Shown here: positions 11,727 to 37,189 of the stretch, piece by piece
How the letters are laid out: each line of letters begins with the position of its first letter
Numbering within the stretch: position 1 is the first letter of the stretch
Assembly: GCA_964550795.1 (NCBI GenBank)
Contig: CAZKBH010000020.1
Span: 8,111 to 72,110 of the forward strand
DNA from: an uncultured Saprospiraceae bacterium
GTDB lineage: Bacteria > Bacteroidota > Bacteroidia > Chitinophagales > Saprospiraceae
DNA: 64,000 nucleotides
Direction: 5' to 3'
The notes under the pieces: generated by a model
What the model was told of the DNA's origin: nothing
What the model saw: only the letters and a program-made list of their open reading frames with translations
The model's database searches: none
Made by a program: the position numbers and the translations under genes

Positions 11727-14700
11727 ATGAATTCAAACCTAGTTTCCAGTCGTATTTACCTATTTTTTCTGTTGACCCTGATTTGTGGTGGAAGCAATAT
11801 TTGGGGACAAGTTATTTCCGCCGAAGAATCCTTTTACAAGGAAGCCCTGAATTTGCGTGGGAAGGGAGATTTCCAATCGGCGTATGAAATGACCATTAGG
11901 TCTGACAGCTTGCTTCAATCCAATCCCCACGCGCCCAATCTCTTGAGGGCACAGGTAAAACACTTACAGGGCCTTATGTTGTACAACCTGAATTTGTTCC
12001 CTCAAGCCATTGGGGCACTCCAATCGGCGGACTCCATTTACGCTGTTTTGCAAGACTTCGGAGGAAGGGCGGATTGTTACCTTTTTATAGGGAATAGCAT
12101 TTGGTATCTGGAAGGGGCAGAAGCGGCTTTGAAGCAATTTGACCTGGCCATTCAATTCGCTCAACGGGACGATTTTAATACCCGGCAATACCGGGGTAAA
12201 TACTATCTTGACAAGGCCTATGCTTATGGAGAGTTGGGCAAGTTTAAAGAAAGTTTTTTGTGGTTGAATAAGGGCTTGGAAATGGATCGGGCGCACTTTG
12301 GCGAAACATCCAAGCAATATGCGGAGGCTCTCATGGTACAATCTGTGATGTTCAATTACCAAGGCGATTATTACAAATCGGCACAGGGCCTGGAATCCGC
12401 GTTGCAAATTCAACAAAATCTGAATTCGGGTGAGAATATACAGCATTTAGCACCTATTTATGGCAATCTGGCCGTTACTTATTTCTATTTAGGTGATCTG
12501 GATGAGGCAGAACGCTATAGTTTGAAAACTTTAGCTGCTTACCGTAGCATTTTGGAAGGCGAGCACAATCAATTTGGCATGATTTATCTACACTTAGGCG
12601 ATATCAATGTGAATCGGAACCAACCGGAGGAAGCCATGGAATGGTACCGAAAAGCAGATCTGGTTGCTGATACCAATGATATCAATCTCCAAATTGGGCT
12701 TCGATATGGATGGGGGTTGAGTTTGCATAATTTGGGTAGGTACGCTGAAGCGGACAGTATCTACAAAGTGTTACGGAAGTCATCGGAGGAGTTTTATGGA
12801 GCCGAGCATTCCAATGTGGCTGTTTACTATGAAAACTTTGCAAACAATTTGCTTGCGCTCGATAGTGTAGAAGCCAGTCTTCGCGCGTTGGATAAAGTTG
12901 CAGCAATTAACCGAGCGTTGTTCCCGCCCGGTCACATAACTGAGGCTCGGATATTGGCATTGAAAGCAAATGTATATTGGACGGCACGTTTTTATGAAAA
13001 AGCCATCGAAACCAGTGAAGCAGGTCTGCAAATATTTGAAGGGAAGCCCGATGCGCTGTTGATGGAACACCACAATATATACTACACTTTGCACCATTCT
13101 CGGGCCAGATCGTTTTTGCAAAAAAGCGGCCAGGATCCCTTGAAAGCCGTTCAAGCGTCGCTGGTGAGTTATCGAGCATTGGAAGCTATCTCGGATCGTA
13201 TCCTACGGGAAGAACGGAGTATGGATGCACGGCAACGCACCCTGTCCAACCGGGGAAATTTATATGAGGAAATGCTCCAAGCGCTGCATCAATTGTCCCG
13301 ATGGACCGTTCCCCAGAATGAAGAAATGTGGCGAATTGTAGAAAAAAGCAAGGCTATGATCCTTTTGGACGGCATCCGAAAGGTCCAAATGCCCATGGTG
13401 GAGTTGGTGCTGGATTCTATTCAAAGAACAACCGCCGCCTATAATTTTTATCAGAAAAAAATATTTGATGCGATGCAGCAACCCGGGACTGCGGATGAAG
13501 ATGCGGTGATACAGTGGCAATCGGCGGCTTTTGACTTAGAAACGCGTCGGCGCTTAATTTGGAAGGTCTTTAGGGAAGAGAACCCTGTGCTTAGCGATAA
13601 TTTTGAACCCGGGAAAAATATACGCTCGCTTCAATATGTACAAGACACCTTACTTCAATCCGATCAAGCCTTGCTCGAATATTTCGTCGGCGACAGCAGT
13701 ATTTTCCTCTTTGTTGTAAAGCCCGATACTTTCCTCGTTGAGGAGATACCATATAATTTCCCGCTTGAAGACTGCATTGAAGGACTTCGAAAAGGTCTAT
13801 ATGGCTATTACGCTGCTGGTAAAGAGGAGCGTTCCGATCCAGACCTCCAGAAAAATTCACGCAAGTTATACCTGGAAAACGCCCAATTCCTTTATGAAAA
13901 ACTCTTCGCCCCTGTGGCACAATTCCTCCCGGAAAAAGTCATCATTGTCCCGGATGGCCCTTTGGGGTACATTCCCTTTGATGCCTTGTTGGATCGAATG
14001 CCGGAGAACGAAATTGATTTTAAATCATATCCATATTTGCTAAAAAAATACCAGTTTAGCTACGTTTATTCGGCTACACTGCTGCGCGAGATGCGAGAAA
14101 AAAAACATCGCCAGGAGCCTAGGAATTCTTTATTGGGCTTTGCGCCATTCCTCTCCAGCGACACGACTAACCTTAAAAAAGAACGCCAAACAGTGTTGCA
14201 AAAAGGGTTTGATCCCTTGCCTTATAGTAAAATCGAACTTGAGCTGGCGCGCCAAAAAATGGGAGGCGACATCGTGACGGGCAGTAATGCCCTGTTATCT
14301 AGATTTTTGGCTGTTGCTGGCCAATACCGCATCCTTCACCTTGCCACCCACGGCGTAGCGGACAACCGCGTGGGCGACTACGCTTATCTGGTTTTTAACA
14401 AACACCCGGATAGCGCAGGGTACTCCTTATTATATGTCAAAGATCTCTACAACCTCTCCCTCAACGCGGATCTTGTGGTGCTTTCTGCTTGCGAAACCGG
14501 GATAGGTAAACTTCAGCGTGGAGAAGGGATCATTTCTCTGGCAAGGGCGTTTGCTTATGCGGGCGCCAAAAGCATACTCACCTCACTTTGGAGCGTGAGC
14601 AACAAAAGCACTTCGGAATTGATGGCTTTGTTTTACGAAGAGTTGAGTGCAGGCCGAGACAAAGATGCCGCCCTTAGAAAGGCAAGGCAACGCTATATCG

Positions 14701-14780
14701 AAAATGCTACGGTGCGCAATGCGCACCCGTTTTTTTGGGCAGCTTTTGTACCTGTTGGGGACATGCGGAGGGTGAAATAA
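11727..14780 (+). CDS. TPR-repeat CHAT-domain (caspase-like) protein, paralogue 1, with N-terminal signal/anchor
   Basis: N-terminus 'MNSNLVSSRIYLFFLLTLICGGSNIWGQ'; TPR-like repeats; CHAT dyad context 'ILHLATHGVADN' and 'LVVLSACETGIGK'; 'HPFFWAAFVPVGD' at the C-terminus. Confidence 0.85.
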   Translation: MNSNLVSSRIYLFFLLTLICGGSNIWGQVISAEESFYKEALNLRGKGDFQSAYEMTIRSDSLLQSNPHAPNLLRAQVKHLQGLMLYNLNLFPQAIGALQSADSIYAVLQDFGGRADCYLFIGNSIWYLEGAEAALKQFDLAIQFAQRDDFNTRQYRGKYYLDKAYAYGELGKFKESFLWLNKGLEMDRAHFGETSKQYAEALMVQSVMFNYQGDYYKSAQGLESALQIQQNLNSGENIQHLAPIYGNLAVTYFYLGDLDEAERYSLKTLAAYRSILEGEHNQFGMIYLHLGDINVNRNQPEEAMEWYRKADLVADTNDINLQIGLRYGWGLSLHNLGRYAEADSIYKVLRKSSEEFYGAEHSNVAVYYENFANNLLALDSVEASLRALDKVAAINRALFPPGHITEARILALKANVYWTARFYEKAIETSEAGLQIFEGKPDALLMEHHNIYYTLHHSRARSFLQKSGQDPLKAVQASLVSYRALEAISDRILREERSMDARQRTLSNRGNLYEEMLQALHQLSRWTVPQNEEMWRIVEKSKAMILLDGIRKVQMPMVELVLDSIQRTTAAYNFYQKKIFDAMQQPGTADEDAVIQWQSAAFDLETRRRLIWKVFREENPVLSDNFEPGKNIRSLQYVQDTLLQSDQALLEYFVGDSSIFLFVVKPDTFLVEEIPYNFPLEDCIEGLRKGLYGYYAAGKEERSDPDLQKNSRKLYLENAQFLYEKLFAPVAQFLPEKVIIVPDGPLGYIPFDALLDRMPENEIDFKSYPYLLKKYQFSYVYSATLLREMREKKHRQEPRNSLLGFAPFLSSDTTNLKKERQTVLQKGFDPLPYSKIELELARQKMGGDIVTGSNALLSRFLAVAGQYRILHLATHGVADNRVGDYAYLVFNKHPDSAGYSLLYVKDLYNLSLNADLVVLSACETGIGKLQRGEGIISLARAFAYAGAKSILTSLWSVSNKSTSELMALFYEELSAGRDKDAALRKARQRYIENATVRNAHPFFWAAFVPVGDMRRVK

Positions 14781-14868
14781 GTTTTTTGTCTTGCTAATCC
14801 GCTGGCCTCGCCACTCTTTGAGCGAAAGCGGTTTAGTTAAAATCATGCCCTAATCGGCATTGACTATA

Positions 14869-14915: not shown

Positions 14916-15027
14916 GATGGAATCGGGATGTTTTATAAAACTTCAAATGAAACCTTACCCAGGAGCCCTTGGCGGCAAAAAGAAGTTGAATATAGACTGA
15001 ATCTTCAACATTTTAAATATAAAACAA

Positions 15028-18000
15028 ATGATCCAACGGTATTTCAATCTTCACAGACTCCTATCTGTGCTTGCGCTATTCGCAGCTACACAGCTACAAG
15101 CGCAAACAGTCGAACCCATGTTTTTCGATTCAGAAAAACAAATGGTTCAAGAAACTAAAACAGCTTTATTGCTGCAAAAAGCCCGGCGTGATAGTATAAA
15201 TTACCATGCTGAGCGCGAATCCGCGATTCAAATCGCAATCCGAAACAACTTGCCCATTGAAGGACTGCGCGAGAGTGGGAGTTTTTCACTGCAAGGATTC
15301 GACGGGTCAGGACTACTCAGCTACTATGCTTCCGACAACGCCGTATCAGCAGAAGTCCTGCGAACCTCGGAACTTCATCCTGGCGGAGACGCAGCCCTTT
15401 CCTTAACCGGCGCCGGGGGAACACTCGGTGTCTGGGAGATTGGTCGGCCGCGCCTGACGCATGTTGAATTCGGCGGACGTGTCATTCAAGGGGATAATTC
15501 AGGGGCTTCCATTGATAATCATGCCAACCATGTTTGCGGCACCATGGTAGCTTCTGGCATTAACGTTAATGCCAGAGGTATGGCTTATGAAGCCAATTTA
15601 CGTGCATACGATGCTAACAATGATGTGTCGGAAATGGCTGCGGCAGCAGCTGGTCCACTTTACCTTCGGGTATCCAACCACTCCTATGGCATGATCTGTG
15701 GTTGGGATTACGACGATTACCAAGGACAGCCCACCTGGTATTGGTGGGGGACACCAAGTATCAACTCAAACACAGAATATCGCTTTGGGCTTTATGACAG
15801 CAAGGCGCGTAACTTCGATGATGTGGTTTATGACGCACCTTTTTATTTACCCGTATTTGCAGCCGGTAACGATCGCGACGATTTTGGTCCTTCGCCTGGC
15901 GCTCAACATGTGGTAAGAAACGCCTCCAATCAGTGGGTGTCCAGCACTGCCATTCGCCAGCCGGATGGCGGCAATTTCGGGTATGATTGTATCCCCCCAG
16001 GTCAATGCGCAAAAAATGTGCTGTCGGTCGGTGCGGTCGAAGCAGAAGCATCCGGAGGTCTGGTCTTTTCAACAATGTCTGAATTCAGCAGTTGGGGCCC
16101 TACAGACGATGGGCGGATCAAACCGGATATCGTTGCTAGAGGCGTGGACGTATATTCCAGTGGCAGTAATAATAATTCGCACTATTACACCTCACGGGGC
16201 ACTTCCATGGCTGCCCCATCGGTGGCCGGTTCGCTTCAACTATTACTAGAGCATTATTCCACCCTGAATCCGGGATTTACGATTCGTGCTTCAGCGTTGA
16301 AAGGACTTGTGATTCATACTGCATCCGATGATTCCGGGCCTAATTATCAGGAAGGTTGGGGATTGATGAATACCCGTGCTGCGGCGGATTTAATGAGTAA
16401 TTCATTCAATGCCAGCAGTAAAGACCGGCTCGTATCCCGGGATTCATTGTCCAATGGCGGACAAAGGGAATATACATTTTACCATGATGGCACCGGGCCA
16501 TTGGTTGCAACAGTTGTGTGGACAGATCCGGCAGGACCCATTTCCACCAATACCTTGAACCCAACCCAACTCCGACTGGTCAATGATCTGGACATCCGGC
16601 TCGTCAGTGAAAATGACAATTCAGTCTATAGGCCATGGGTGCTCAATCCCGGCAACCCTTCCGCCAATGCTACCAAGGGTGATAATTTTCGCGACAATTT
16701 GGAGCAGATCTATGAAGAAAATCTGCCGCGGGGACGTTATTTTTTGCGCGTCACGCACAAAGGCTCTCTGAATGGTGGGGTACAGTTCTATTCCCTGATC
16801 CTATCCGGAAGATCCAATTTGTTGACAGCCTGTAGCGGCTCCATCTCCAATGGTAGTGGTGGAAACAATTACCTGAACAATACCAGCCATTCCTGGACCA
16901 TCAGTCCGCCCAATGCGGCATCGGTCACCCTGAATTTCACGTCGTTCAATACAGAATTAAATTATGATTTTGTAAAAGTATATAATGGGACCAGCGCCTT
17001 CGATCCGCTCCTCGGTGAATTCAGTGGTGCTTCTCTGCCACCCTCACTCACCGCCAGCAGCGGAAAAATGTTTATCGTGTTTGAGACGGATGGATCAGTG
17101 ACACGCCCGGGTTGGAGTGCCAATTACACTTGTTCCACGCCACAAATATCTGTAAGCGTAAACCAACTTTTTTCAGGATCTGGAGCCAACACGAACTCGT
17201 TTGATCTTGTGGCGAATTGTAATTGGACCATCTCAGGCATTCCTTCCTGGTTAACCGTGACTCCCTTATCAGGGAATTCCAATGCGCAGATCCAGGTGAA
17301 TTTTAGTGTCAACTCCTCCACTGCAACGCGTACTGCCAACCTGATAGTCACAGGTTGTGACGGCACGGTACTGACGATTGAGGTTACCCAGTTTGGGTGT
17401 TCCGCCCCATCAACGCCCAATATAGCGGCCAATGGCCCGACAAATCTTTGTCCAGGCGAAAATGTCACCTTGACAGCTTCTAATGTATGCTCCGGCTGTA
17501 CGGTCAGTTGGTCAAACGGACAAAGCGGAACCAGCATAAGCGTTTCGACCCCAGGAACTTATACGGCTTCGGTGCAAAATACCTGCGGCCCCAGTTCTGC
17601 ATCCAATGCTATTGCAGTCACAATGGGCAGCATGCCCAACGCGCCTACCATCGCTGCTGATGGCCCGACAAATCTTTGTCCAGGCGAAAGTGTGACTTTG
17701 ACGGCCAGCAATGTGTGTTCTGGCTGCACGGTCAGTTGGTCGAACGGACAAAGCGGAACCAGCATAAGCGTTTCAAATGCAGGCACTTATACGGCTTCTG
17801 TGATAAACAGCTGCGGTCCCAGTTCGGCGTCGAATGCCATTTCAATCACCATCGGAAACACGCCTCAAGCGCCTACGATTGCTGCAAGCGGATCCACCAG
17901 TTTGTGTCCCGGCGAAAGTGTCACCTTGACGGCTTCTAATGTATGTTCCGGCTGCACGGTCAGTTGGTCCAATGGACAAACTGGCGCCAGCATAAATGTG

Positions 18001-19266
18001 TCAAATGCAGACACTTACACGGCTTCCGTAATAAACACCTGTGGTCCCAGTTCGGCATCGAATGCCATTTCAATCACCACAGGAAACACATCTCAAGCAC
18101 CTACGATTGCTGCAAGCGGACCCACCAGTTTGTGTCCCGGCGAAAGCGTGACTTTGACGGCCAGCAATGTGTGTTCGGGCTGCACGGTCAGTTGGTCGAA
18201 CGGACAAAGCGGAGCCAGCATAAATGTTTCCAATGCAGGTATTTACACGGCTTCCGTAATAAACACCTGTGGTCCCAGTTCGGCATCGAATGCCATTTCA
18301 ATCACCACCGGAAACACACCTCAAGCACCTACGATTGCTGCAAGTGGACCCACCAGTCTGTGTCCCGGCGAAAGCGTCACCTTGACGGCAAGTAATGTAT
18401 GTTCTGGCTGCACGGTCAGTTGGTCGAACGGACAAAGTGGAGCCAGCATAAGCGTTTCAAATGCAGGCACTTATACGGCTTCTGTGATAAATATCTGCGG
18501 TCCGAGTTCTGCGTCCAATGCCATTTCAATCACAACAGGTAGCGTACCCATTGCGCCCACCATCACTGCCGAAGGCCCGACCAGTCTTTGTCCGGGGGAA
18601 AGTGTGACCTTGAGCGCTTCCAATGTATGTTCTGGTTGTACGGTCAGTTGGTCGAACGGACAAAGTGGCGCCAGCATCAATGTGTCCAATGCAGGCACTT
18701 ACACGGCTTCTGTGATAAATATCTGCGGTCCGAGTTCTGCGTCCAATGCCATTTCAATCACCGCCGCACCGCCATTTTTACCCACCATTCAGGTGAACAA
18801 TTCATGCCAGCTCGCTGCGCCAACCGGCAATAATTACCAGTGGTTTCTGAATGGCATGGCTATCAGTGGTGCGAACGGACAGTTCTGGTCTGCTCAGGCG
18901 ACCGGATACTATGGGGTCAGCATGACCAATTTGGCAGGTTGTGCGGGCACTTCCGACCCGGTGTTTGCAGAAGCTTGCATGAGCAACTTGGTGAATGTAT
19001 CCGAAAACCTTTCATTGGTTTTATACCCAAATCCTGCCAAGGATAAGATCACGATAGAAATGCGGTCTTTGGAGGATTTGAGGGATATCAGACTTGAATT
19101 GTACACTTTTGACGGGCGATCCATAGGCTCTGTATTCCAAATAGAAAGGCTTGCGGGAAATTCGAGTACAGAAATTCAATTGCCGGAATTACCTGCCGGG
19201 ATGTACCGATATCGGCTTTCGAGCAGCCAGGGTGATGCGCTGGGCAGTTTGATGATTGTGCGATGA
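15028..19266 (+). CDS. Giant secreted S8 (subtilisin-like) peptidase with CUB-like and BACON-like modules, six Cys-containing Ig-like repeats and a T9SS C-terminal sorting domain
   Basis: Signal 'LLSVLALFAATQLQAQ'; 'NHANHVCGTMVASG' (His), 'AAGND', 'GTSMAAPSVAG' (Ser); 'NYDFVKVYNGTS...GKMFIVFETDGSV' (CUB-like); 'NCNWTISGIPSWLTVTP' (BACON-like); 'LVLYPNPAKDKITIE...' (T9SS CTD). Confidence 0.85.
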   Translation: MIQRYFNLHRLLSVLALFAATQLQAQTVEPMFFDSEKQMVQETKTALLLQKARRDSINYHAERESAIQIAIRNNLPIEGLRESGSFSLQGFDGSGLLSYYASDNAVSAEVLRTSELHPGGDAALSLTGAGGTLGVWEIGRPRLTHVEFGGRVIQGDNSGASIDNHANHVCGTMVASGINVNARGMAYEANLRAYDANNDVSEMAAAAAGPLYLRVSNHSYGMICGWDYDDYQGQPTWYWWGTPSINSNTEYRFGLYDSKARNFDDVVYDAPFYLPVFAAGNDRDDFGPSPGAQHVVRNASNQWVSSTAIRQPDGGNFGYDCIPPGQCAKNVLSVGAVEAEASGGLVFSTMSEFSSWGPTDDGRIKPDIVARGVDVYSSGSNNNSHYYTSRGTSMAAPSVAGSLQLLLEHYSTLNPGFTIRASALKGLVIHTASDDSGPNYQEGWGLMNTRAAADLMSNSFNASSKDRLVSRDSLSNGGQREYTFYHDGTGPLVATVVWTDPAGPISTNTLNPTQLRLVNDLDIRLVSENDNSVYRPWVLNPGNPSANATKGDNFRDNLEQIYEENLPRGRYFLRVTHKGSLNGGVQFYSLILSGRSNLLTACSGSISNGSGGNNYLNNTSHSWTISPPNAASVTLNFTSFNTELNYDFVKVYNGTSAFDPLLGEFSGASLPPSLTASSGKMFIVFETDGSVTRPGWSANYTCSTPQISVSVNQLFSGSGANTNSFDLVANCNWTISGIPSWLTVTPLSGNSNAQIQVNFSVNSSTATRTANLIVTGCDGTVLTIEVTQFGCSAPSTPNIAANGPTNLCPGENVTLTASNVCSGCTVSWSNGQSGTSISVSTPGTYTASVQNTCGPSSASNAIAVTMGSMPNAPTIAADGPTNLCPGESVTLTASNVCSGCTVSWSNGQSGTSISVSNAGTYTASVINSCGPSSASNAISITIGNTPQAPTIAASGSTSLCPGESVTLTASNVCSGCTVSWSNGQTGASINVSNADTYTASVINTCGPSSASNAISITTGNTSQAPTIAASGPTSLCPGESVTLTASNVCSGCTVSWSNGQSGASINVSNAGIYTASVINTCGPSSASNAISITTGNTPQAPTIAASGPTSLCPGESVTLTASNVCSGCTVSWSNGQSGASISVSNAGTYTASVINICGPSSASNAISITTGSVPIAPTITAEGPTSLCPGESVTLSASNVCSGCTVSWSNGQSGASINVSNAGTYTASVINICGPSSASNAISITAAPPFLPTIQVNNSCQLAAPTGNNYQWFLNGMAISGANGQFWSAQATGYYGVSMTNLAGCAGTSDPVFAEACMSNLVNVSENLSLVLYPNPAKDKITIEMRSLEDLRDIRLELYTFDGRSIGSVFQIERLAGNSSTEIQLPELPAGMYRYRLSSSQGDALGSLMIVR
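17404..18780 (+). repeat. Six tandem 228-bp (76-aa) near-identical coding repeats inside the S8 peptidase gene
   Basis: The unit 'APTIAASGPTSLCPGESVTLTASNVCSGCTVSWSNGQSGASI.VSNAGTYTASVIN.CGPSSASNAISIT' recurs with phase boundaries at 17641, 17869, 18097, 18325 and 18553. Confidence 0.9.
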
Positions 19267-19520
19267 GGTTCTAATTGAAGCATTGGATTTTTTTGCGCCG
19301 GGTGGCCTCTTTTGGGGTCATCCGGTTTTTTGTTTGTAATAGCAAAATATTGATTATCAGTGGTTTGTGAGAAAATTTTTTAAATTTTTTAAAATTTATC
19401 AGTACACACCTTACCAGCTCAGTGGCCGTGGCAATAAGAAGTAAATTTACACTCACCACCTGTTTTACATTCAAAATCACCTGGGAATGTAAATCGAATC
19501 ATCAAACTTATTCATAAACA

Positions 19521-24937: not shown

Positions 24938-25067
24938 AGGTTGATGGCACGCGGATAACGCGGATAACGCGGATAAATTTCAATTTCCCACAGAACAACC
25001 TTACCCCTCCATTCCGCCCGGCAATAACGGTTATCAATGCAATCTTTCACATCAAAAAAGAAACATC

Positions 25068-29800: not shown

Positions 29801-30150
29801 TTTATATTAAAGACTTGTACAACCTCTCCCTCAACGCTGACCTCGTGGTGCTTTCTGCTTGTGAGACCGGAATCGGCAAACTTCAGCGCGGTGAAGGGAT
29901 CATATCTCTAGCACGCGCATTCGCCTATGCGGGGGCTAAGAGCATGGTCACCTCGCTTTGGAGCGTCAGCAATAAAAGCACTTCGGAACTTATGGCCTTG
30001 TTTTATGATGAATTAGCCCTAGGCAAAGAAAAAGATGCCGCCCTGCGGGAGGCAAGGCTGCGCTATATTAAAAATGCCTCAGTTAAGAATAGTCACCCGT
30101 TTTTCTGGGCGGCCTTTGTGCCGATAGGAGATATGCGGCCGGTACGATAG
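26809..30150 (+). CDS. TPR-repeat CHAT-domain protein, paralogue 3
   Basis: N-terminus 'MRNFLTAVLISILTLLQNYSVGQ'; TPR units; 'IIHLATHGVADN', 'LVVLSACETGIGK', 'HPFFWAAFVPIGD'. Confidence 0.85.
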   Translation: MRNFLTAVLISILTLLQNYSVGQNSVNMSLADSSSVQLALRFTDTLLLGGDHSNAITLAQRILDHCQTNADTTGRNYKAGLEKMGLGHYYLGNYPLAVQLYRHALSLYSITEREANAAAYAATQYRVGLAYHYLGQNDSALVWHMAALHGREAIQPIDSNSLASSYNGIGMAFDATDQPDQALEWYGKATKTWKSVKGYWNRNTANGYNNIGITYHTIGRYEEALKYKLEALRIRQKILGPDEYDTGASWLNLGATYHAIGQLDKSANALAEAYRIWSRILPPEHPNLALLMDNTGITLMDMGDFTNAEKWLKDALKSRLDNYGYDSPETCKPLTNLGVLAGKTADYSAAIDYQLKATYLFQKSAGNEYELMVAYSNIGVFYSDLEEHQNALLWLEKALELSNKIESVRKDMITDIYYNMGIAFQGLQLFDKALEYKQRAHNEALIALGDTNTHYINYTEGLGRYYRDTKDYDKASNYFEKALQLRAKQAGLMSMNYAMVMLEIAQVKLLADEIEHILPLLQHVEYIVHYHNPNGASSDLRTWMRIKYLYAQYFQSRYELDKRLEDYEQAAVLYNGMRDTFLLHLSDMNGVESWRYWTNFIYPAFGDAIKLYTEQYLHNHQKESVAQAWLFSESAKSLLLLKAINDEKVVNFNGIPDSIITQERLYRVQITFLEKLRQEMIASGKIEQDSLVLSVSSQITDYRQKVIQVRDQLNQHASQYVSLRYNLNQIPLLRVSETLVGKNQALLEYFVGDSSIFLFVVRPDTMIVQEVKRDFPLEEWIEGLRYGIYGHYAADKAIQTDSLKADAKRHYLEFAPKLYQKLVAPVAQHLPEKVILVPDGPLGYVPFDALLESLPQYEDDFKSYPYLLKKYQFSYTYSATLLREMNNKKHRQAPPKPFLGFAPFFTGDQLAFEQEYGDVLRKGFAPLPYTREEVGLARKKMGGDVVVGQSATEEQFLEIASQYSIIHLATHGVADNRVGDYAYLVFGDHPDSFGYELLYIKDLYNLSLNADLVVLSACETGIGKLQRGEGIISLARAFAYAGAKSMVTSLWSVSNKSTSELMALFYDELALGKEKDAALREARLRYIKNASVKNSHPFFWAAFVPIGDMRPVR

Positions 30151-30333
30151 CCCGCATTGAACCGATGAATTATTGAAACGCCTGCTGTGCTTGATGCATG
30201 GTGGGCGTTTTAATTTGTTGGTTATCAATGGTTTTGAAAAATTTATTATTGGTTTTTTTGAAACAACCTTACTAGGTCAAAGATTGCGGCAATAAGTGGT
30301 AGAATCTTTTCACTCACACTTAAAATTGAAGAA

Positions 30334-30603
30334 ATGGAACCAATTACAATCACCATCGCTGGAATTAAATTTATCGGCATTGCTGCAGTAAAACTCAAAC
30401 TTTTGGTTTTTTACTGGAAAGTCAAAAGTCTAATTGCTGCTGCTGGAATTAGTGCGGAAACTTTATCTATCGCCGCAGTCGGCGCTATGTTAACTGCTGC
30501 GGTTGAGGGGAAATCTGCTGATAACATACTTAAAACCGGACTAAAAAACGGGTTGTCCGATAGCCTTTCAAGATTTATCACTTATGAAGTAATAAGAGTT
30601 TAA
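30334..30603 (+). CDS. Small hydrophobic/membrane protein (89 aa)
   Basis: Two Ala/Gly/Ile-rich hydrophobic stretches. No motif was recognised. Confidence 0.45.
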   Translation: MEPITITIAGIKFIGIAAVKLKLLVFYWKVKSLIAAAGISAETLSIAAVGAMLTAAVEGKSADNILKTGLKNGLSDSLSRFITYEVIRV

Positions 30604-30666
30604 ATGGGGCTGAAGCAATAATGTATGTAAATCAACCAAATTCATTCACCTAACAAAAACAATATC

Positions 30667-31026
30667 ATGCGAACTAAATCAGAAGCGCGGCTTAAAGCCG
30701 AGAACATCGTATCAAATTGGGTTGCAGGCGCTGCCCTTACGGGTTGGATTCCTGGAAGCACTATCTTTTTGGCAGGGGCCAACATGGTCATGATTCGGAA
30801 AGTAGCGGATACATTCGGAGTTGGCTTTTTCGATGAGGCTGCTGTTAAAGCCCATTTGGGCGGAGTGGCTGGAGCTGCCTTTGGAGGGAGTGTTGCTGGA
30901 GAAGCCTTGGTGTTAATTCCTCTTGTAGGTCCAGTACTGAAGGCAGGTGCTCTGGCAGGAACAGCCAAGTTAATTGGTACTGCCGTCATTGAATACTTCC
31001 ATGACGAAAGCCCACTCCCGGATTAG
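30667..31026 (+). CDS. Small Gly/Ala-rich membrane protein, DUF697/YcjF-like pattern
   Basis: 'GWIPGSTIFLAGANMVMIRKVADTFGV' resembles the DUF697 core, followed by the glycine-zipper-like 'GGVAGAAFGGSVAGEALVLIPLVGPVLKAGALAG'. Confidence 0.45.
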   Translation: MRTKSEARLKAENIVSNWVAGAALTGWIPGSTIFLAGANMVMIRKVADTFGVGFFDEAAVKAHLGGVAGAAFGGSVAGEALVLIPLVGPVLKAGALAGTAKLIGTAVIEYFHDESPLPD

Positions 31027-31117
31027 TCTAACAGAAGTTCATACCCGGTTGTCTATTCTTGAATAGGCAACCGGGTACATTCAACATCATTTTTTCACCC
31101 TATCATTTTTAGACATT

Positions 31118-31414
31118 ATGAGCAAGTTAGCAGATGATCTCGAACTCCACTACAATGAGGCGTACTATCGCCATGATCTTAAAGCTGGAATTAAATTAAT
31201 TGCTGAAATAGCTGGCGCTGTTTCATTAGGCAGCCTGTTATTATCCATTTTGTTTGTCTGGTTGCCTGGTATTGGTATTCCCATTACCGCAGCTGTGGCG
31301 GTAAAAGTTTTCAAAGCTGCCGCCGAAGGTTATACGAATCTGGATGCTGAAGATCGCAAAAAGGTTCGTGCTGTTGTGAGATGGACTCAAGGTGGTATCC
31401 GGTTATTGGATTAA
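31118..31414 (+). CDS. Small membrane protein (98 aa)
   Basis: Central hydrophobic hairpin 'AGAVSLGSLLLSILFVWLPGIGIPITAAVAV'. Confidence 0.45.
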   Translation: MSKLADDLELHYNEAYYRHDLKAGIKLIAEIAGAVSLGSLLLSILFVWLPGIGIPITAAVAVKVFKAAAEGYTNLDAEDRKKVRAVVRWTQGGIRLLD

Positions 31415-31438
31415 TTCATGTAAAAATTACGCAAATCA

Positions 31439-31737
31439 TGTTCACCATCACCATCCTCATTGACAATCAAAGTACTGCCGTCAATATTCACCCGAATCAT
31501 ACGGCTCGGCAAATCCTGGACTACTTGCAGCAAAACCGTCTGATTTCGCGGTTTCAAGCCAACGTTCATCTCTTTTTTAACGGAGGCTTATTGCCTCTCA
31601 ACCAGCCTGTATCGCACTTCGGCATAGGGCCGAATGCAGTACTGAATGTTGTTTCAAACAATGGTCCCGGCTTTGGCGGTGGCGGCAAAGAAACCCTTTT
31701 AGTTGCCTTGCTAAAGGCATTCGCTAAACTGAAATAG
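31439..31737 (+). CDS. Ubiquitin-like (beta-grasp) small protein with Gly-rich linker and short C-terminal amphipathic helix
   Basis: Starting at ATG 31439, 'FTITILIDNQSTAVNIHPNHTARQILDYL...VHLFFNGGLLPLNQPVSHFGIGPNAVLNVV' follows the ubiquitin beta1-beta2-alpha1...'[13 protein letters not shown].I...STLHLV' pattern. It is followed by 'GPGFGGGG' and 'KETLLVALLKAFAKLK'. Confidence 0.45.
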
Positions 31738-31739: not shown

Positions 31740-32348
31740 ATGAACGCATTAATTGAATTCTTTCAACCAGCTTGGAACGGCTGGGGACAATCGGTCGTTT
31801 TTCTAGGCGGTGCCGTGGTCGTCTGGCTGCTGGGAAGGGCACAATCCATTGGGGAAATCCGTAAGCTCCAGGCAGAATTGGTTTCGTTGCGCGTCAACCA
31901 GTTTGAGAAGATTATCACCTTGGACGAGAAGCTACGTAGCGTGACAGAACGGGTATACGAACAATTGTACGCACTGCTCCATGCCACTCAAAACGCGGAT
32001 GCAGAAGGAGCAAAAACTGCCCGGGAAGCGACCCAAAAAATCTTTTTGCTGGAGTATATCGGGGCTTATTTTCACTACACCAGTGTTGGTCGCTGGGTAT
32101 TCCCGGAAGTCCGGTACGAATTGGTGGATGATGAGATCATACCCTTTCTAAAAACTTCGGCAATGCTGCTCGAAGCGCTCAACCAAGCTACGGTACTTTC
32201 ATTGACCCAGCAGCAAGTCTTAGTAATGAGCGACATAGATTTCAACTTCGCGCTCCGTTTTGCCAGAAAACACACGCGGTTTTGGGAGTTTGAACGTCGG
32301 AAAAGTTTAGTCGAGCTTGAAAAAAGACTGCTGAAACAGGCAGCATGA
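31740..32348 (+). CDS. Hypothetical N-terminally anchored helical protein (202 aa)
   Basis: TM-like 'GQSVVFLGGAVVVWLLG'. The start is 3 nt after the Ubl stop. No motif was recognised. Confidence 0.5.
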   Translation: MNALIEFFQPAWNGWGQSVVFLGGAVVVWLLGRAQSIGEIRKLQAELVSLRVNQFEKIITLDEKLRSVTERVYEQLYALLHATQNADAEGAKTAREATQKIFLLEYIGAYFHYTSVGRWVFPEVRYELVDDEIIPFLKTSAMLLEALNQATVLSLTQQQVLVMSDIDFNFALRFARKHTRFWEFERRKSLVELEKRLLKQAA

Positions 32349-32486: not shown

Positions 32487-35400
32487 ATGCGTGGTTTTTT
32501 TGTTTTTGTTTTAGGGGTGTTTTTTGTATTTCTTGGTAAGCCTTCCTTTGGGCAGAGCATGGGAGATACTTTGGGGTTGACGGGGACGGTGGCGGATACG
32601 GTGGTGGCGAATCGGTTGTTTGAAGAGATGAAAGGGTTGATAAAGGAGCGGAAATGGGAAGAGGCGGAAGGGAAAGGAGAACAAGCAAAAGTTGTATATA
32701 CGAGGCTATTTGGGGAAGAAAGCAGGCAGGTGGCTGATGTTTGGCATCAGAGGGGATTCATTTGTTATGGCCAGGTAGACTACAATATGGCATCACATAG
32801 TTGGGAAAAATCCTTAAACATTCGATTGAAAATATTGGGAGAAGAACATTTTGACGTGGCTAAGTCATGCAACAACCTCGGCATTACCTACGAATCAAAG
32901 GGGGAGTATGATAAAGCAACTGAATATCATCAAAAATCCTTAAATATCGGATTGAAAATATTTGGAGAAGAACACCAGTATGTGGCCACTTCTTACAACA
33001 ACCTTGGCGCTGCCTACCAATCAAAGGGAGAGTATGATAAATCATTAGAATATCAACAAAAAGGATTAAATATAAAATTGAAAATGTTGGGAGAAGAACA
33101 CCCGGAGGTGGCCACGTCATATAACAATCTTGGCAATAGTTACGAATCAAAGGGGGAATATGATAAAGCATTAGAACATTATCAAAAGGCCTTAATTATC
33201 TTATTGAAAATATTTGGAGAAGAGGATGCTGACGTGGCTAAGATATATAACAACCTTGGCAGTGCCTACGATTTAAAGAGAGAGTATGATAAAGCATTAG
33301 AATATCATCAAAAATCCATAAATATCAAATTGAAAATATTTGGAGAAGAACACCCAGAGGTGGCCACGTCATACAACAATCTTGGCATTACTTACCAATT
33401 AAAGGGAGAGTACGATAAAGCATTAGAACATCATCAAAAGGCCTTAAATATTCTATTGAAAATATTTGGGGAAGAGCACCCAGATGTGGCTGATGCATAT
33501 CTCAATCTTGGCGGCACCTACCAATCAAAGGGAGATGATAGAGCATTTGAATACAAACATAAAGCCTTAAATATTTTATTGAAAATATTTGGAGAAGAGC
33601 ACAGTTCTGTAGCTCTGCTATATAATAATCTTGGCATTACCTACATATCAAAGAGGGAGTATGATAAAGCAATAGAATATTATCAAAAATCTTTAAATAT
33701 CCGGTTGAAAATATTTGGCGAAGAGCACCCGGATTTGGGTCAATCATATAATAATCTTGGCGCAGCCTACAAATCAAAAGGGGAATATGATAAAGCAGTT
33801 AGTTTTTATAAAAAATCTATCCATGCTTGCGGTTATATTGAATATGATTTTTCGAAAGTTAATTCAGTGGAAAATTTAGTTGAGGGACTATACAACATTG
33901 GGCGGATGCTACATAGTAATTATACACTAACCAATGTTCCACAATTTATGAATCAAACATTTGACTATTCAAGCCAAACTATCTCAGCAGTCAATTACCA
34001 ACAATCAACCTTCACAGAAGAGTCCTCCAAGTCCCTCCACCTCTCCAAAAACTACCCCATCTACGAACAAGCCATCTCCATCTCCCTCCTAAAAGCCGAA
34101 GTAGATAAAAACGACACCCTCCGACACAACACCTTCACCTACGCCGAAAAAAGCAAAGCCTCACTCCTCCAGGCTCAGATCAAAGCCTCCGACGCCATCA
34201 ATTTTTCCGGCATCCCCGATACCCTCCTTCAAAAAGAACACGATCTCCGAATAGACATCACCTGGCGCGAAAAACAACGCCAAGCCCTCCTTGACAAAGG
34301 TCTCTCCGAAACCGATACCAACACCCTCCGCATTTCCAGCATCATTTTCGACCTTAAACGCGACTACGAAACCCTCAAAAAACGCTTCGAAACCGATTAC
34401 CCAGAATATTACCGCCTAAAATACGATCTCAGCACCGTCTCCCTCCAATACGTCCAGAACACCCTGCTCCAACCCAAAAACCAGGCCCTGCTCGAATACT
34501 TCGTCGGCGACAGCAGCATCTTCCTGTTTGTGGTCCGGCCGGATACCATGATCGTCCAGGAAGTCAAGCGCGATTTCCCGCGCGAAGATTGGGTCGAAGG
34601 ACTGCGCCAAGGAATATACGGTTACTACGCCGCCGACAAAGCGTTGCAAACGGATTCACTAAAAGCCGATGCTAGAAGTAAATACCTCGAATGCGCCCCA
34701 AAACTTTACCAAAAACTCGTCGCCCCGGTAGCGCAATACCTGCCCGAAAAGATTATCCTGGTGCCTGATGGCCCGCTGGGATATGTTCCCTTCGATGCCT
34801 TGCTCACAAGTGCACCCGAGGACCTGAACAATTTTAAATCCTACCCCTATCTTCTTCACAAACATCAGTTTAGCTATACCTACTCCGCGACGCTGCTCCG
34901 CGAAATGCGAGACAAAAAACACCGACAAGAACCGAAAAATGACTTTCTAGCCTTCGCACCTTTTTACAATGGTGATACCACGTTACTGGCCAGTATGTAT
35001 GCCTACGACGAGTTAATGCGAAAGGACCTACAGCCGCTTACTTATTCTGGCCCGGAAGTAGCCGCTGCGGCCAAGCTTATGCGCGGTGAAGCCATAATAG
35101 GTACTGCCGCGACGGAAGAAAGATTCACCAGCATGGCCAGTGATTACCGAATCATTCACCTCGCCACCCACGGCCGCGCTGACAACCGCGTGGGCGATTA
35201 CGCCTTCCTCGCTTTTACCGAAATAAAGGACAGTATCGAAAATGAGCTGCTCTATGTCAAGGACTTATACAACCTCTCCCTCAATGCCGACCTCGTGGTA
35301 CTCTCCGCCTGCGAAACCGGCATCGGCAAATTGCAACGTGGAGAGGGCATCATCTCCCTCGCCCGGGCATTCGCATACGCGGGCGCAAAGAGCATCGTGA

Positions 35401-35600
35401 CCAGTCTGTGGAGCGTGACCGACAAAAGCACCTCGGAACTCATGCGTTTGTTTTACCGGGAATTGAAGCGTGGAAAAGACAAGGATGAAGCTTTGCGATT
35501 GGCTCGATTGCGCTTCTTGAAGGAGTCGTCGGTGCGAAATGGACACCCGTTTTTCTGGGCGGCCTTTGTGCCGATTGGGGATATGCGGCCTGTGAAGTAA
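32487..35600 (+). CDS. TPR-repeat CHAT-domain protein, paralogue 4
   Basis: Preferred start is ATG 32487 ('MRGFFVFVLGVFFVFLGKPSFGQ'). Eight very regular 42-aa TPR units. 'IIHLATHGRADN', 'LVVLSACETGIGK'. Confidence 0.85.
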   Translation: MRGFFVFVLGVFFVFLGKPSFGQSMGDTLGLTGTVADTVVANRLFEEMKGLIKERKWEEAEGKGEQAKVVYTRLFGEESRQVADVWHQRGFICYGQVDYNMASHSWEKSLNIRLKILGEEHFDVAKSCNNLGITYESKGEYDKATEYHQKSLNIGLKIFGEEHQYVATSYNNLGAAYQSKGEYDKSLEYQQKGLNIKLKMLGEEHPEVATSYNNLGNSYESKGEYDKALEHYQKALIILLKIFGEEDADVAKIYNNLGSAYDLKREYDKALEYHQKSINIKLKIFGEEHPEVATSYNNLGITYQLKGEYDKALEHHQKALNILLKIFGEEHPDVADAYLNLGGTYQSKGDDRAFEYKHKALNILLKIFGEEHSSVALLYNNLGITYISKREYDKAIEYYQKSLNIRLKIFGEEHPDLGQSYNNLGAAYKSKGEYDKAVSFYKKSIHACGYIEYDFSKVNSVENLVEGLYNIGRMLHSNYTLTNVPQFMNQTFDYSSQTISAVNYQQSTFTEESSKSLHLSKNYPIYEQAISISLLKAEVDKNDTLRHNTFTYAEKSKASLLQAQIKASDAINFSGIPDTLLQKEHDLRIDITWREKQRQALLDKGLSETDTNTLRISSIIFDLKRDYETLKKRFETDYPEYYRLKYDLSTVSLQYVQNTLLQPKNQALLEYFVGDSSIFLFVVRPDTMIVQEVKRDFPREDWVEGLRQGIYGYYAADKALQTDSLKADARSKYLECAPKLYQKLVAPVAQYLPEKIILVPDGPLGYVPFDALLTSAPEDLNNFKSYPYLLHKHQFSYTYSATLLREMRDKKHRQEPKNDFLAFAPFYNGDTTLLASMYAYDELMRKDLQPLTYSGPEVAAAAKLMRGEAIIGTAATEERFTSMASDYRIIHLATHGRADNRVGDYAFLAFTEIKDSIENELLYVKDLYNLSLNADLVVLSACETGIGKLQRGEGIISLARAFAYAGAKSIVTSLWSVTDKSTSELMRLFYRELKRGKDKDEALRLARLRFLKESSVRNGHPFFWAAFVPIGDMRPVK
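32806..33813 (+). repeat. Eight tandem 126-bp TPR-coding units in CHAT-4
   Basis: The unit 'K.LNI.LKIFGEEHP.VA.SYNNLG..Y.SKGEYDKALEY.Q' recurs every 42 aa. Confidence 0.8.
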
Positions 35601-35624
35601 GAGGCAAGCGGATAATGGTACGAA

Positions 35625-36584
35625 TTATTTCTTCTGCAGCGCCAATTCCAAAGTTTTGGCACGGTCAAAATAAGGGTGCTTTGGATTGGCCGTGATTTCT
35701 TTCAATAGGGCATCCAGGCGAGTACGAGAATCAGGGAGTTGTCTGGTCATGCAAAAAACCTCGCACCAAAGCGCATCTAGCTTTCGATCAGAATCAAAGT
35801 CCCGAAATTTGTGGAAGTCTGCTTCAGCTTTTGCGTACTGACCTAAGTGGTAGTAAGTATATCCGCGCAGATAAAGAGATTCTTGTTCCCGGTTTTTGTC
35901 CGGCTTTTCAAGCAATTTCAACGCATCCCGGTATTCTAGATCCACATAAAACCTGACGGCTTGATCATAAAGCAACTGCGACTCTTCTTTTTCTTCTCCC
36001 ATCAGCGTTTGGCTGAAATCTTCATCTATATAACTATTGTCCGCTATGGCAGCAAAGTCTTGGTCTATCTTTGGATTTTGAACCTTTTGATTTTGAACCT
36101 TTGGTTTTTCAACCTTCGGTGTCTGAACCGGAGGGGCTTTTTTTTCAGCTATAGGTGGGTTTTGACTAACTGGTGCCGTGGAAGTGGTATCTTTTTCTGC
36201 GGATGGAGATATGGGATTGGAATCCTTGACTTCTTCAGGTTTAAACCCGTTTAAGTTCTCGACTAGTACAAACAGACCCCCTGACAAAACAACCAAAATA
36301 GCAACAATTCGCCAATTACGATAGAGAAACGACCCCTTCCTGCCATTGGAGGGAGTATCTGTTTTTTTTTCAGCTTCCGCATCATTGCTCCAATCATCCA
36401 ATTGCGCCAACAGATGCTCGTTCCGCAGCATACGCAACACTTTAGATTCTGATCGAAGGGCTTCCACACGCCGTATCAAATCGGCATCCGATTGGAGTGC
36501 ATCCTCAAAGGCCACCCGGTCTGACACACTCATCCGATCATGGATGTAGTCGTCAATATCTTCAAATTCGTATAGCGGATTCAT
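35625..36584 (-). CDS. Anti-sigma-factor-like single-pass membrane protein with Pro/Lys-rich linker and TPR-like C-terminal domain
   Basis: 4-bp overlap with the upstream sigma gene. N-terminal helical region, TM 'WRIVAILVVLSGGLFVLV', 'PKVEKPKVQNQKVQNPK' linker, C-terminal 'YLRGYTYYHLGQYAKAEADF'. Confidence 0.6.
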   Translation of the reverse strand: MNPLYEFEDIDDYIHDRMSVSDRVAFEDALQSDADLIRRVEALRSESKVLRMLRNEHLLAQLDDWSNDAEAEKKTDTPSNGRKGSFLYRNWRIVAILVVLSGGLFVLVENLNGFKPEEVKDSNPISPSAEKDTTSTAPVSQNPPIAEKKAPPVQTPKVEKPKVQNQKVQNPKIDQDFAAIADNSYIDEDFSQTLMGEEKEESQLLYDQAVRFYVDLEYRDALKLLEKPDKNREQESLYLRGYTYYHLGQYAKAEADFHKFRDFDSDRKLDALWCEVFCMTRQLPDSRTRLDALLKEITANPKHPYFDRAKTLELALQKK

Positions 36585-37189
36585 ATTTCGCGTAGTTCTT
36601 CAAGCAATTCAGGGCGTTCAGACAAAATTGTGTTGAGCTTTTTTCTGCAATCACGAACAGCCATTTTGGCCGAATCATGGCTTTTATAGTCAAATTTTTC
36701 GGCAATCTCCCCCATGGAATAACCGTGACTATACCATTGGAGCAGTGTTCGACATTTCGCTCCGGTCGAAATCAGTAATTTGTCTAACAACTCCCTTTGA
36801 TGCTGTAGGTTAAATTCAAATTCGGGATTGGTCACAATGTCAACATTCCCATCATCCATTGCTCGATCATGCATTGCTACCCGCCGATGTTCCGAGCGCC
36901 GCTTTGTGTAATACATCTGCGTAGCTATTTTGACAATATAGGTGGAAATGGCGCTTCTTGTAGGGTCATACTTACCCTCCTCTACATGATTCAAAAAAGC
37001 CACCAATGCCTGGTTTAGCACATCCTTTGCATCGTTTTCGTCACCCCCCAAAATCCTTACCTGCTGCCTGACAGCCCCCTTAAGTTTGTCGTTAAGACAG
37101 AGGTGTCGCATAGCTGCATTGATTTGAAGGTTCACATTGCTTCGCAATGCCTCGAGAATAGATTGATCGTCTTTGAATGGATTGTTCAT
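36581..37189 (-). CDS. Sigma-70 family (ECF-like) RNA polymerase sigma factor
   Basis: About 200 aa. Region 2-like 'DVLNQALVAFLNHVEEGKYDP..SAISTYIVKIATQMYY' and region 4 HTH-like 'GYSMGEIAEKFDYKSHDSAKMAVRDCRKKL'. Confidence 0.7.
   Translation of the reverse strand: MNNPFKDDQSILEALRSNVNLQINAAMRHLCLNDKLKGAVRQQVRILGGDENDAKDVLNQALVAFLNHVEEGKYDPTRSAISTYIVKIATQMYYTKRRSEHRRVAMHDRAMDDGNVDIVTNPEFEFNLQHQRELLDKLLISTGAKCRTLLQWYSHGYSMGEIAEKFDYKSHDSAKMAVRDCRKKLNTILSERPELLEELREI

Follow-up and report, generated by a model that had tools for sequence, protein, structure and literature searches.

A cluster of predicted periplasmic TPR-CHAT proteins beside a sigma/anti-sigma pair: a candidate envelope signalling unit in Saprospiraceae

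What role do four caspase-like proteins with predicted export signals play in the midst of secreted peptidases, small orphan proteins and a sigma/anti-sigma pair? The question is raised by a cluster of ~25 kb (positions 11727–37189) in a stretch of 64 kb, here called the window, from an uncultured Saprospiraceae bacterium (assembly GCA_964550795.1, contig CAZKBH010000020.1, positions 8111 to 72110 of the forward strand). On the plus strand between 11.7 and 37.2 kb, four genes for proteins with a TPR array and a CHAT domain (TPR-CHAT; CHAT1 to CHAT4) are interleaved with genes for an S8 subtilase, a C1 papain-like peptidase, two exported proteins and a five-gene cassette, while a sigma factor resembling those of the extracytoplasmic function (ECF) type and its anti-sigma factor are encoded convergently at the right end. 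All of these genes had been named in an initial annotation made from the sequence alone, and each was present at its coordinates and confirmed by Pfam and by reading of the sequence; CHAT, TPR_12, Peptidase_S8 and Peptidase_C1, the families proposed there for a check, were all matched.

We consider it on balance probable that the cluster forms one envelope signalling unit, i.e. CHAT sensors, an anti-sigma factor, a sigma factor, and peptidases and cassette as outputs, because a shared promoter-like motif and the conserved synteny of CHAT genes with the sigma/anti-sigma pair exceed what is expected by chance. The genes of the cluster are the following, T9SS denoting the type IX secretion system:

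11727–14780, plus strand: CHAT1, TPR-CHAT protein of 1017 aa; CHAT at E value 4.4e-61 with TPR_12; predicted signal peptide ending in IWG before Q; dyad intact; promoter-like motif absent upstream
15028–19266, plus strand: S8 subtilase of 1412 aa, predicted to be secreted by the T9SS; Peptidase_S8, CUB, BACON, six Ig_7 and Por_Secre_tail (Pfam)
19521–20063, plus strand: 180-aa protein with lipoprotein-like N-terminus, no family match
20136–21470, plus strand: 444-aa exported protein with T9SS sorting domain (Por_Secre_tail, E value 3.7e-9; TIGR04183)
21695–24937, plus strand: CHAT2, TPR-CHAT protein of 1080 aa; predicted signal peptide ending in VMG before Q; dyad intact
25068–26702, plus strand: C1 papain-like lipoprotein peptidase of 544 aa; Peptidase_C1 at E value 1.6e-19; LLSC lipobox
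26809–30150, plus strand: CHAT3, TPR-CHAT protein of 1113 aa; predicted signal peptide ending in SVG before Q; terminator-like hairpin at 30172–30214
30334–31414, plus strand: cassette genes 1 to 3 (89, 119 and 98 aa), small hydrophobic or Gly/Ala-rich orphans with no Pfam, NCBIfam or PADLOC match
31438–31737, plus strand: cassette gene 4, protein of 99 aa with predicted ubiquitin fold (Ubl); weak Rad60-SLD match at E value 2e-3
31740–32348, plus strand: cassette gene 5, 202-aa orphan; 14 homologues, all at least 59 % identical
32487–35600, plus strand: CHAT4, TPR-CHAT protein of 1037 aa; predicted signal peptide ending in SFG before Q; adjoins the sigma/anti-sigma pair
35625–36584, minus strand: single-pass anti-sigma factor of 319 aa with cytoplasmic N-domain, transmembrane helix at residues 93–111, Pro/Lys-rich periplasmic linker and C-terminal TPR-like domain
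36581–37189, minus strand: ECF-like sigma-70 family factor of 202 aa; Sigma70_r2 at E value 2e-5; size fits regions 2 and 4 only

Linkage of TPR-CHAT genes to a sigma/anti-sigma pair

A scan with the CHAT alignment, at one genome per species, yielded 79 loci (numbered with the prefix L), mainly from Saprospiraceae, with Lewinellaceae, Aureispira, Phaeodactylibacter, Flavilitoribacter nigricans DSM 23189, Dokdonia, Maribacter and Ignavibacteria among the other taxa. Using tblastn and jackhmmer with the window proteins, homologues of the sigma factor were found in 43 loci, with a gene for a single-pass protein of ~250–350 aa next to it. Of 78 loci representing one species each, 31 had the sigma gene no more than 2 kb from a TPR-CHAT gene; among the 40 whose flanks reached at least 2.5 kb on both sides, 24 did. 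Three gene orders were observed, i.e. CHAT facing anti-sigma and sigma as in the window, which is the commonest geometry in other species (16 loci), a divergent order (8 loci), and a co-directional order of sigma, anti-sigma and CHAT (7 loci). In the co-directional loci L061, L068 and L044 the gap between the anti-sigma and CHAT genes is only 9–28 nt, and in the metagenome locus L003, where the linkage was first sighted, sigma and anti-sigma are followed by two CHAT genes.

The linkage of CHAT to sigma persists down to ~21 % sigma identity. Look-ups starting from sigma relatives of 60–73 % identity returned the triad of CHAT, sigma and anti-sigma genes again (L085 and L087), and the same was true of L089, for which the sigma factor had served as seed. 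Several CHAT genes stand in tandem with one sigma/anti-sigma pair in L013, L039, L051, L077, L006, L007 and L089; in the last of these, the order is CHAT, T9SS protein, astacin, CHAT, a cassette of 141-aa, Ubl and 202-aa genes, CHAT, and convergent anti-sigma and sigma genes. Conservation of the triad is well supported. The initial annotation had reserved the case that CHAT genes of related genomes might show no conserved linkage to any of these partners, and this is contradicted by the sigma/anti-sigma synteny, by the shared motif described below and by L089.

The same annotation had counted S8, C1 and cassette genes among the potential partners, and for these no conserved association with CHAT was found. 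A Pfam census of the 106 open reading frames (ORFs) within 3 kb of CHAT blocks showed no dominant or further conserved partner family beyond sigma/anti-sigma and a modest enrichment of T9SS sorting domains (13 of these 106 ORFs, compared with 5 of 123 located 5 kb or more from CHAT blocks; p = 0.027 by Fisher's test). S8 peptidases made up 2 and C14 peptidases 3 of the 106 ORFs, and C1 peptidases were seen in 3 loci. The peptidase class is interchangeable between relatives, with S8, C1 or astacin found at the equivalent position.

The sigma factor scored 42.6 bits against TIGR02937, i.e. borderline to the cut-off of 42.9, and the profile of its family matched the ECF sigma factors SigL, SigW and SigE in the PDB with E values of 4e-6 to 8e-6. 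Two cysteines, C146 and C181, flank the sigma-4 helix-turn-helix and are invariant in 16 aligned members that are otherwise 20–58 % identical; they may bind a metal or act as a redox site within the sigma factor itself.

The anti-sigma gene overlaps the sigma gene by 4 nt according to the coordinates, and its homologues adjoin sigma in 40 loci. These 40 proteins start with ~80 residues in the cytoplasm and cross the membrane once, by a helix at residues ~75–125; most then have a linker of 40–100 residues rich in Pro, Glu, Lys and Thr, and a TPR-like domain of ~120 residues follows. Both the convergent position of the pair at the right end of the cluster and the extracytoplasmic TPR-like domain of the anti-sigma factor had been recognized before, and both are borne out here. 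The family N-terminus, with the consensus KIExYLxGxLxxxExxAFE, resembles class I anti-sigma domains without zinc ligands; zf-HC2 gave weak matches in 6 of 29 N-termini of the family, and PDB sequence searches with the anti-sigma factor and its N-terminal profile reached no anti-sigma domain.

A promoter-like motif shared by the sigma operon and neighbouring units

Alignment of the DNA upstream of the sigma gene in seven orthologous loci revealed a conserved block directly 5' of the ATG, with the consensus CCTTACC-N12-GCGGCAATAAG, and the same two boxes at identical spacing were found before four more units of the window. When searched as CCTTAC-N15-GGCAANAA with one mismatch allowed, the motif gave five matches in the window, all of them exact, against 0.08 expected, and five were reached in none of 100 shuffles. 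All five sites are intergenic and oriented toward the next gene:

14953–14981, plus strand: CCTTAC-N15-GGCAAAAA, exact; 47 nt 5' of the S8 ATG
19409–19437, plus strand: motif, exact; 5' of the pair of 180-aa and 444-aa genes
24999–25027, plus strand: motif, exact; 41 nt 5' of the C1 ATG
30267–30295, plus strand: motif, exact; 39 nt 5' of the cassette
37193–37221, minus strand: motif, exact; ends 3 nt before the sigma ATG

Across all DNA examined (1.35 Mb) there were 24 exact sites, versus none in shuffles. Since the two boxes are conserved and the spacers unrelated, the motif is a cis-element and not a repeated sequence. Among relatives it is found 5' of the sigma gene as an exact copy in L006, L007, L048, L085, L087 and L089 and with one mismatch in L020. 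In addition, it precedes genes for S8 and T9SS proteins (L007, L090), an S8-like T9SS protein (L006), the C1 orthologue (L020), astacin lipoproteins (L085, L089), proteins with T9SS domains (L016, L089) and variants of the cassette (L007, L089, L090), and all four sites expected in L089 were found. The distance from the end of the motif to the sigma ATG is 3 nt in every orthologue, which fits a leaderless sigma transcript. The block upstream of sigma was also considered as the -7 box of Bacteroidetes housekeeping promoters (TAnnTTTG), and this assignment was dropped in view of the occurrence of both boxes, at fixed spacing, before four other units.

ECF sigma factors that regulate their own expression are typically recognized by a motif common to the sigma operon and units nearby, and the sigma factor of the cluster would presumably be the one that reads the motif found here. 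The shared motif suggests that the sigma factor controls the S8 peptidase, the exported pair, the C1 peptidase and the cassette as its outputs, and that these do not form a protease cascade. Of the earlier proposal of an envelope proteolytic cascade or signalling system, the coherent envelope unit is thereby retained on account of synteny and motif, while a cascade is less supported than a sensor with a sigma regulon. The motif was never found directly 5' of a CHAT gene, and within 300 nt 5' of each CHAT gene even the best match deviated at 5 of the 13 specified bases. CHAT3 and CHAT4 each have a conserved hairpin followed by a T-run upstream.

One further repeat is found near these sites:

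24949–24976, plus strand: perfect 9-bp tandem repeat of ACGCGGATA, 3.1 copies; 23 nt 5' of the C1 promoter box

Related repeats of GATGACGCG occur 5' of the sigma promoter in L006, L007 and L048. These 9-bp repeats could be the binding site of a second regulator or a repeat element.

TPR-CHAT proteins, proposed mechanism and rival explanations

In all four paralogues, CHAT (PF12770) was matched over the full-length profile with E values of 4e-61 to 2e-62, and TPR_12/TPR_10 arrays are located N-terminally. The contexts of the His/Cys dyad, HLATHG and LSACETG, are intact in all four proteins as previously described, and both residues are invariant upon alignment with 24 homologues. An AlphaFold model of CHAT3 (mean predicted local distance difference test, pLDDT, of 78) combines a TPR solenoid made up of helices only with a C-terminal alpha/beta CHAT domain, and its best Foldseek matches in the PDB were human separase, the craspase subunit Csx29 (8eey_B) and DdvA (8rw5, 8rot_A), with E values of 5e-14 to 1e-12. 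These matches fix the fold class and single out none of the three as the closest. The four proteins are predicted to be caspase-fold members of the CHAT family with putative proteolytic activity.

Export was assessed by our own heuristic on the N-terminal sequence. All four N-termini begin with a short charged n-region, followed by a hydrophobic core and then a small-x-small site before Gln, so that Sec-type signal peptides with cleavage between Gly and Gln are predicted for all four paralogues, in agreement with the exported N-termini ending in GQ that had been noted initially. The hydrophobic core is present in 91 of the 108 CHAT homologues listed and in 65 of 75 full-length genomic homologues, 59 and 52 of which, respectively, also have the cleavage site before Gln, and Gln at +1 after the predicted site is at least 90 % conserved in the CHAT alignment. 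Bacteroidetes are known for Gln at +1 of signal-peptidase-I substrates. Neither a lipobox Cys nor a T9SS C-terminal domain was found in any of the four paralogues, the CHAT domain extending to the last residues. With a signal peptide, no lipobox and no T9SS domain, the proteins are predicted to be soluble in the periplasm. The mature N-termini of CHAT2, CHAT4 and the orthologues in L006, L007 and L085 read GDTLGLTGT(V/M)ADTVVAN right after the signal-peptide cleavage site, and this motif is shrunk to (A)DTxLA in distant CHAT homologues.

The paralogues are 50–100 % identical over the C-terminal ~380 residues versus 10–45 % over the TPR halves, i.e. a conserved protease chassis carries fast-changing TPR arrays. 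The nucleotide sequences of CHAT2 and CHAT4 are 88 % identical over the C-terminal ~520 codons and 51 % identical over the TPR part; for the remaining pairs the values are 65–72 % versus 36–40 %. The abrupt mosaic of CHAT2 and CHAT4 points to recombination or gene conversion. The TPR array of CHAT4 is encoded by a 126-bp tandem repeat (7.9 copies, 76 % matches, 32806–33802).

How could these components work together? The core of the unit would consist of the ECF-like sigma factor, the single-pass anti-sigma factor with its presumably disordered linker and small TPR-like ectodomain, and a free periplasmic TPR-CHAT protein, here in four paralogues. By analogy with DdvA of Myxococcus xanthus, a ligand, probably a protein or peptide, would bind the TPR array in the periplasm; the activated CHAT domain would cut the linker of the anti-sigma factor, i.e. 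perform site-1 cleavage; and an intramembrane protease would complete degradation of the anti-sigma factor and free the sigma factor. The latter would then read CCTTACC-N12-GCGGCAATAAG before its own operon and before the four further units, the outputs being the T9SS subtilase, the 180-aa/444-aa exported pair, the papain-like lipoprotein and the five-gene cassette of putative membrane and ubiquitin-like proteins. Action of CHAT as a site-1 protease on the anti-sigma ectodomain, as the initial annotation had suggested, is the best-supported mechanism, with the cleavage itself deduced from the analogy. Its other idea, that CHAT may process S8 and C1 zymogens, is not among the supported ones. 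Conceivable signals are invaders, secretion stress and nutrients of protein or peptide nature. It is possible, and we advance this tentatively, that the paralogues form a receptor array, in which each TPR superhelix reads a different periplasmic protein or peptide and CHAT cuts the shared anti-sigma factor in trans, as part of a widespread three-component pathway of Bacteroidota controlling T9SS peptidases and the cassette.

The closest precedent is DdvA, a transmembrane anti-sigma factor with a periplasmic TPR-CHAT region of ~900 residues, the active site of which is turned toward the other protomer's flexible linker (PMC11506125). In the proposal of that study, DdvA cleaves itself upon a signal, and this is the site-1 cut that precedes RseP; removal of the TPR-CHAT domain allows RseP-dependent degradation, and such fused proteins are, according to the same authors, found only in Myxococcota and one Comamonas (PMC11506125). 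The premise of the initial annotation that CHAT proteases are cytoplasmic, with no described mechanism for exported ones, is therefore outdated. The cluster shares with the DdvA/DdvS locus an ECF-type sigma gene beside a single-pass anti-sigma gene, a long flexible periplasmic linker after the transmembrane helix, a periplasmic TPR-CHAT with intact His/Cys dyad (its location in the cluster being predicted by the heuristic) and an additional cysteine peptidase gene (C25-type in the DdvA locus, C1 in the cluster); the CHAT3 model matches DdvA with a Foldseek E value of ~1e-13. However, the TPR-CHAT proteins of the cluster are separate, signal-peptide-bearing polypeptides, up to four per sigma/anti-sigma pair, while its anti-sigma factor has a TPR-like ectodomain of only ~120 aa, its putative regulon comprises secreted peptidases and an orphan cassette instead of CBASS (cyclic oligonucleotide-based antiphage signalling system) and CRISPR (clustered regularly interspaced short palindromic repeats), and its host belongs to the Bacteroidota.

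In type III-E CRISPR, control of the ECF sigma factor RpoE is exerted by Csx30, a protein that is cleaved by craspase Csx29 (PMC10028731). Coupling of a TPR-CHAT to release of an ECF sigma factor through cleavage of an inhibitor would be common to both systems, and the CHAT3 model matches Csx29 (8eey_B) with an E value of 1e-13; in contrast, Csx29 is cytoplasmic, RNA-guided and bound to Cas7-11, whereas the CHAT proteins of the cluster are predicted to be exported and no cas genes were found in the scanned proteins. A PDB sequence search with the CHAT half reached neither DdvA nor craspase, which were found by fold comparison alone. The actinobacterial ECF54 group has CHAT, subtilase and carboxypeptidase neighbours, no anti-sigma factor and a proposed proteolytic control (PMC8999054; PMC7826278). 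The genomic association of an ECF sigma gene with CHAT and subtilase genes is similar, but the cluster has an anti-sigma factor, relatives in Bacteroidota and a sigma factor matching only generic ECF models.

Polysaccharide utilization loci of Bacteroidota signal across the envelope by means of an ECF sigma factor, an anti-sigma factor and a SusC-like transducer. There, too, the periplasmic domain of the anti-sigma factor is the target of a sensor in the envelope, and the sigma factor induces secreted polymer-degrading enzymes (cf. PMC7826278 on ECF240). The putative sensor of the cluster is, however, a soluble caspase-fold protease with TPRs and not a TonB-dependent transporter, its outputs are peptidases and not glycoside hydrolases, and its anti-sigma factor is not FecR-like. 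Taken together, the cluster appears to share the logic of DdvA/DdvS and the gene content of ECF54 and to differ from each. In the searchable literature, neither exported TPR-CHAT proteins in Bacteroidota/Saprospiraceae nor an arrangement of this type were found described.

If the proposed mechanism is true, it would represent the first caspase-type, ligand-gated site-1 protease that is a separate polypeptide, and it would add a split, modular form, common in Saprospiraceae and also present in other Bacteroidota, to the sole characterized periplasmic TPR-CHAT signalling device, DdvA of Myxococcota. As protease and presumed substrate are separate proteins, the cluster allows a direct test of the site-1 step, and with it of the DdvA hypothesis, both in vitro and genetically, and experiments are feasible because a cultured strain, Flavilitoribacter nigricans DSM 23189 (L039), carries the triad. 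The motif and the predicted regulon of T9SS peptidases are a candidate account of how secreted proteases are controlled in these protein-degrading or predatory bacteria.

Several points weigh against this signalling unit. CHAT-dependent cleavage of DdvA is itself only proposed, and mutants of its dyad had no phenotype under the conditions tested (PMC11506125). The export calls stem from the heuristic and not from SignalP, and the sample of loci is skewed to Saprospiraceae by the search patterns. About 40 % of the well-flanked CHAT loci have no adjacent sigma gene, the distant sigma relative P0169 has no CHAT gene nearby, and another, P0170, abuts a CHAT gene with no anti-sigma gene in between. 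The motif was found only where the sigma factor is at least ~43 % identical to that of the window and not 5' of more distant sigma orthologues, including that of L039, and the regulon can therefore be proposed for the close clade only; moreover, another regulator could bind the motif.

A different division of roles would turn the TPR-CHAT proteins into outputs or accessory effectors, i.e. periplasmic processing or quality-control proteases for T9SS cargo, C1/astacin lipoproteins or other envelope proteins, with the sigma/anti-sigma pair answering a different signal. Gene order lends itself to this explanation, since CHAT lies directly 3' of a motif-driven peptidase gene, where read-through is possible, in L020 (C1), in L085 (astacin) and in L016, since each motif-driven unit of the window other than S8 is followed by a CHAT gene, and since CHAT is inside the sigma operon in co-directional loci; the enrichment of T9SS cargo near CHAT fits as well. 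Nevertheless, in the window terminator-like hairpins stand between C1 and CHAT3 and between the cassette and CHAT4, and the motif precedes none of the CHAT genes. The partner peptidase varies (S8, C1, astacin or none), which is a poor fit to a dedicated maturase, sigma and anti-sigma are the only invariant neighbours, and hypervariable TPR arrays on a conserved protease are more sensor-like than maturase-like. We regard an effector role as rather unlikely. The wiring could also be as we propose and serve defence, with TPR-CHAT detecting proteins of phages or competitors that enter the periplasm, a role also proposed for DdvA, and the regulon of small membrane proteins, Ubl cassette and proteases constituting the response against them. 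DdvA/DdvS provides resistance to phages and controls an island with CBASS and CRISPR (PMC11506125), the cluster borders on Wadjet JetC/JetD genes, a KaiC-like ATPase gene and a transposase gene, sensor diversification with turnover of tandem repeats is typical of conflict systems, and the cassette is a fast-evolving orphan of small membrane proteins. Against this stand the absence of any PADLOC defence-model match in the cluster beyond a generic TPR match, the lack of an E1, E2 or deubiquitinase partner for the Ubl protein, and the recurrent outputs, i.e. secreted peptidases and T9SS cargo, to which protein foraging or predation in Saprospiraceae is better suited; a defence role appears doubtful.

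Finally, the arrangement might be a chance juxtaposition of large expanded families in a variable genome region, given that TPR-CHAT is abundant in Bacteroidota (830 matches among the scored candidates), that Bacteroidetes genomes contain on average ~22 ECF sigma factors (PMC7826278) and that the neighbours are heterogeneous apart from sigma/anti-sigma. This is very improbable in the face of all five exact motif sites of the 64 kb lying inside the cluster in correct orientation against 0.08 expected, the adjacency to the same sigma/anti-sigma family in dozens of species and three gene orders, and the recurrence of the whole architecture in L089.

Secreted peptidases, small-protein cassette and flanking genes

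The S8 gene is followed by a terminator-like hairpin (19297–19326), and its Ig_7 units are encoded by a 228-bp tandem repeat (5.8 copies, 84 % matches, 17431–18762). The coding repeats for Ig_7 units in S8 and TPRs in CHAT4 suggest recent repeat expansion. At residues ~128–133 the S8 peptidase has Glu at the position of the catalytic Asp32 of subtilisin BPN' (LGVWEIG versus VAVIDSG), while the His and Ser motifs are canonical; Glu for Asp is also found in the Aureispira S8 orthologue of L008, which is 44 % identical. The protein may thus belong to a Glu-His-Ser subfamily of S8 or be an inactive enzyme. In the C1 peptidase, the catalytic contexts of Cys, His and Asn are present by direct reading. 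T9SS sorting domains (PF18962/TIGR04183) are confined to S8 and the 444-aa protein, and are found neither in C1 nor in any CHAT paralogue. A 186-aa gene occupies a position 3' of the motif in L016 comparable to that of the 180-aa gene.

All five cassette ORFs are genuine open frames without family assignment, and the cassette is an orphan of a narrow clade; cassette, 180-aa protein and a 214-aa protein gave no match in NCBIfam, PADLOC or Pfam. Genes 1 to 3 probably encode membrane proteins. The 89-aa protein has a single homologue, adjoining sigma in L024, and the Gly/Ala-rich protein of 119 aa (30667–31026; ...WIPGSTIFLAGANMVMIRKVADTFGV...), which may resemble membrane-associated domains of the DUF697/YcjF type, had no Pfam match at an E value of 0.1 or below. 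The sequence of the 202-aa protein suggests a transmembrane helix at the N-terminus and a coiled coil after it; the gene for this protein is always located 3' of the Ubl gene and 5' of a CHAT gene where the contig reaches that far, the contig of L090 stopping at the 202-aa gene.

For the Ubl protein, 9 representatives were found among 1.84 billion proteins. Its AlphaFold model (pLDDT 80 overall and ~90 in the core) superimposes on ubiquitin with a template-modelling score (TMt) of 0.84 and a root-mean-square deviation of 2.0 Å over 73 residues, and has the predicted features of a beta-grasp fold. No E1, E2 or JAB/other deubiquitinase domains were found among the cluster proteins, and the Ubl protein has no exposed C-terminal Gly-Gly. 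A conserved GFGGGG occupies the place of the RGG of ubiquitin, followed by a conserved amphipathic helix of 15 residues (KETLLxxLLKAFAKLK).

The left flank of the cluster contains the following genes:

1–1530: JetC-like SbcC Walker B protein, fragment of Wadjet
1527–2654: JetD (Wadjet)
2867–4318: KaiC-like double ATPase
4969–8280: PAS/GAF hybrid histidine kinase
9668–10570: PD-(D/E)XK family transposase

The cluster therefore borders a region of defence and mobile-element genes (1–10570). Among the cluster proteins and ten flanking ORFs, a scan that reached ~41 kb of the window gave no match to cas domains, and PADLOC matched no defence model among the cluster proteins apart from one generic TPR match. 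Downstream of the cluster lies an HMG-CoA synthase gene. The closest genomic relatives of the cluster are metagenome-assembled genomes of Saprospiraceae and Chitinophagales, and the identical sequence is also present on metagenome contigs from JGI sample 3300020048 and ENA ERZ27262927.

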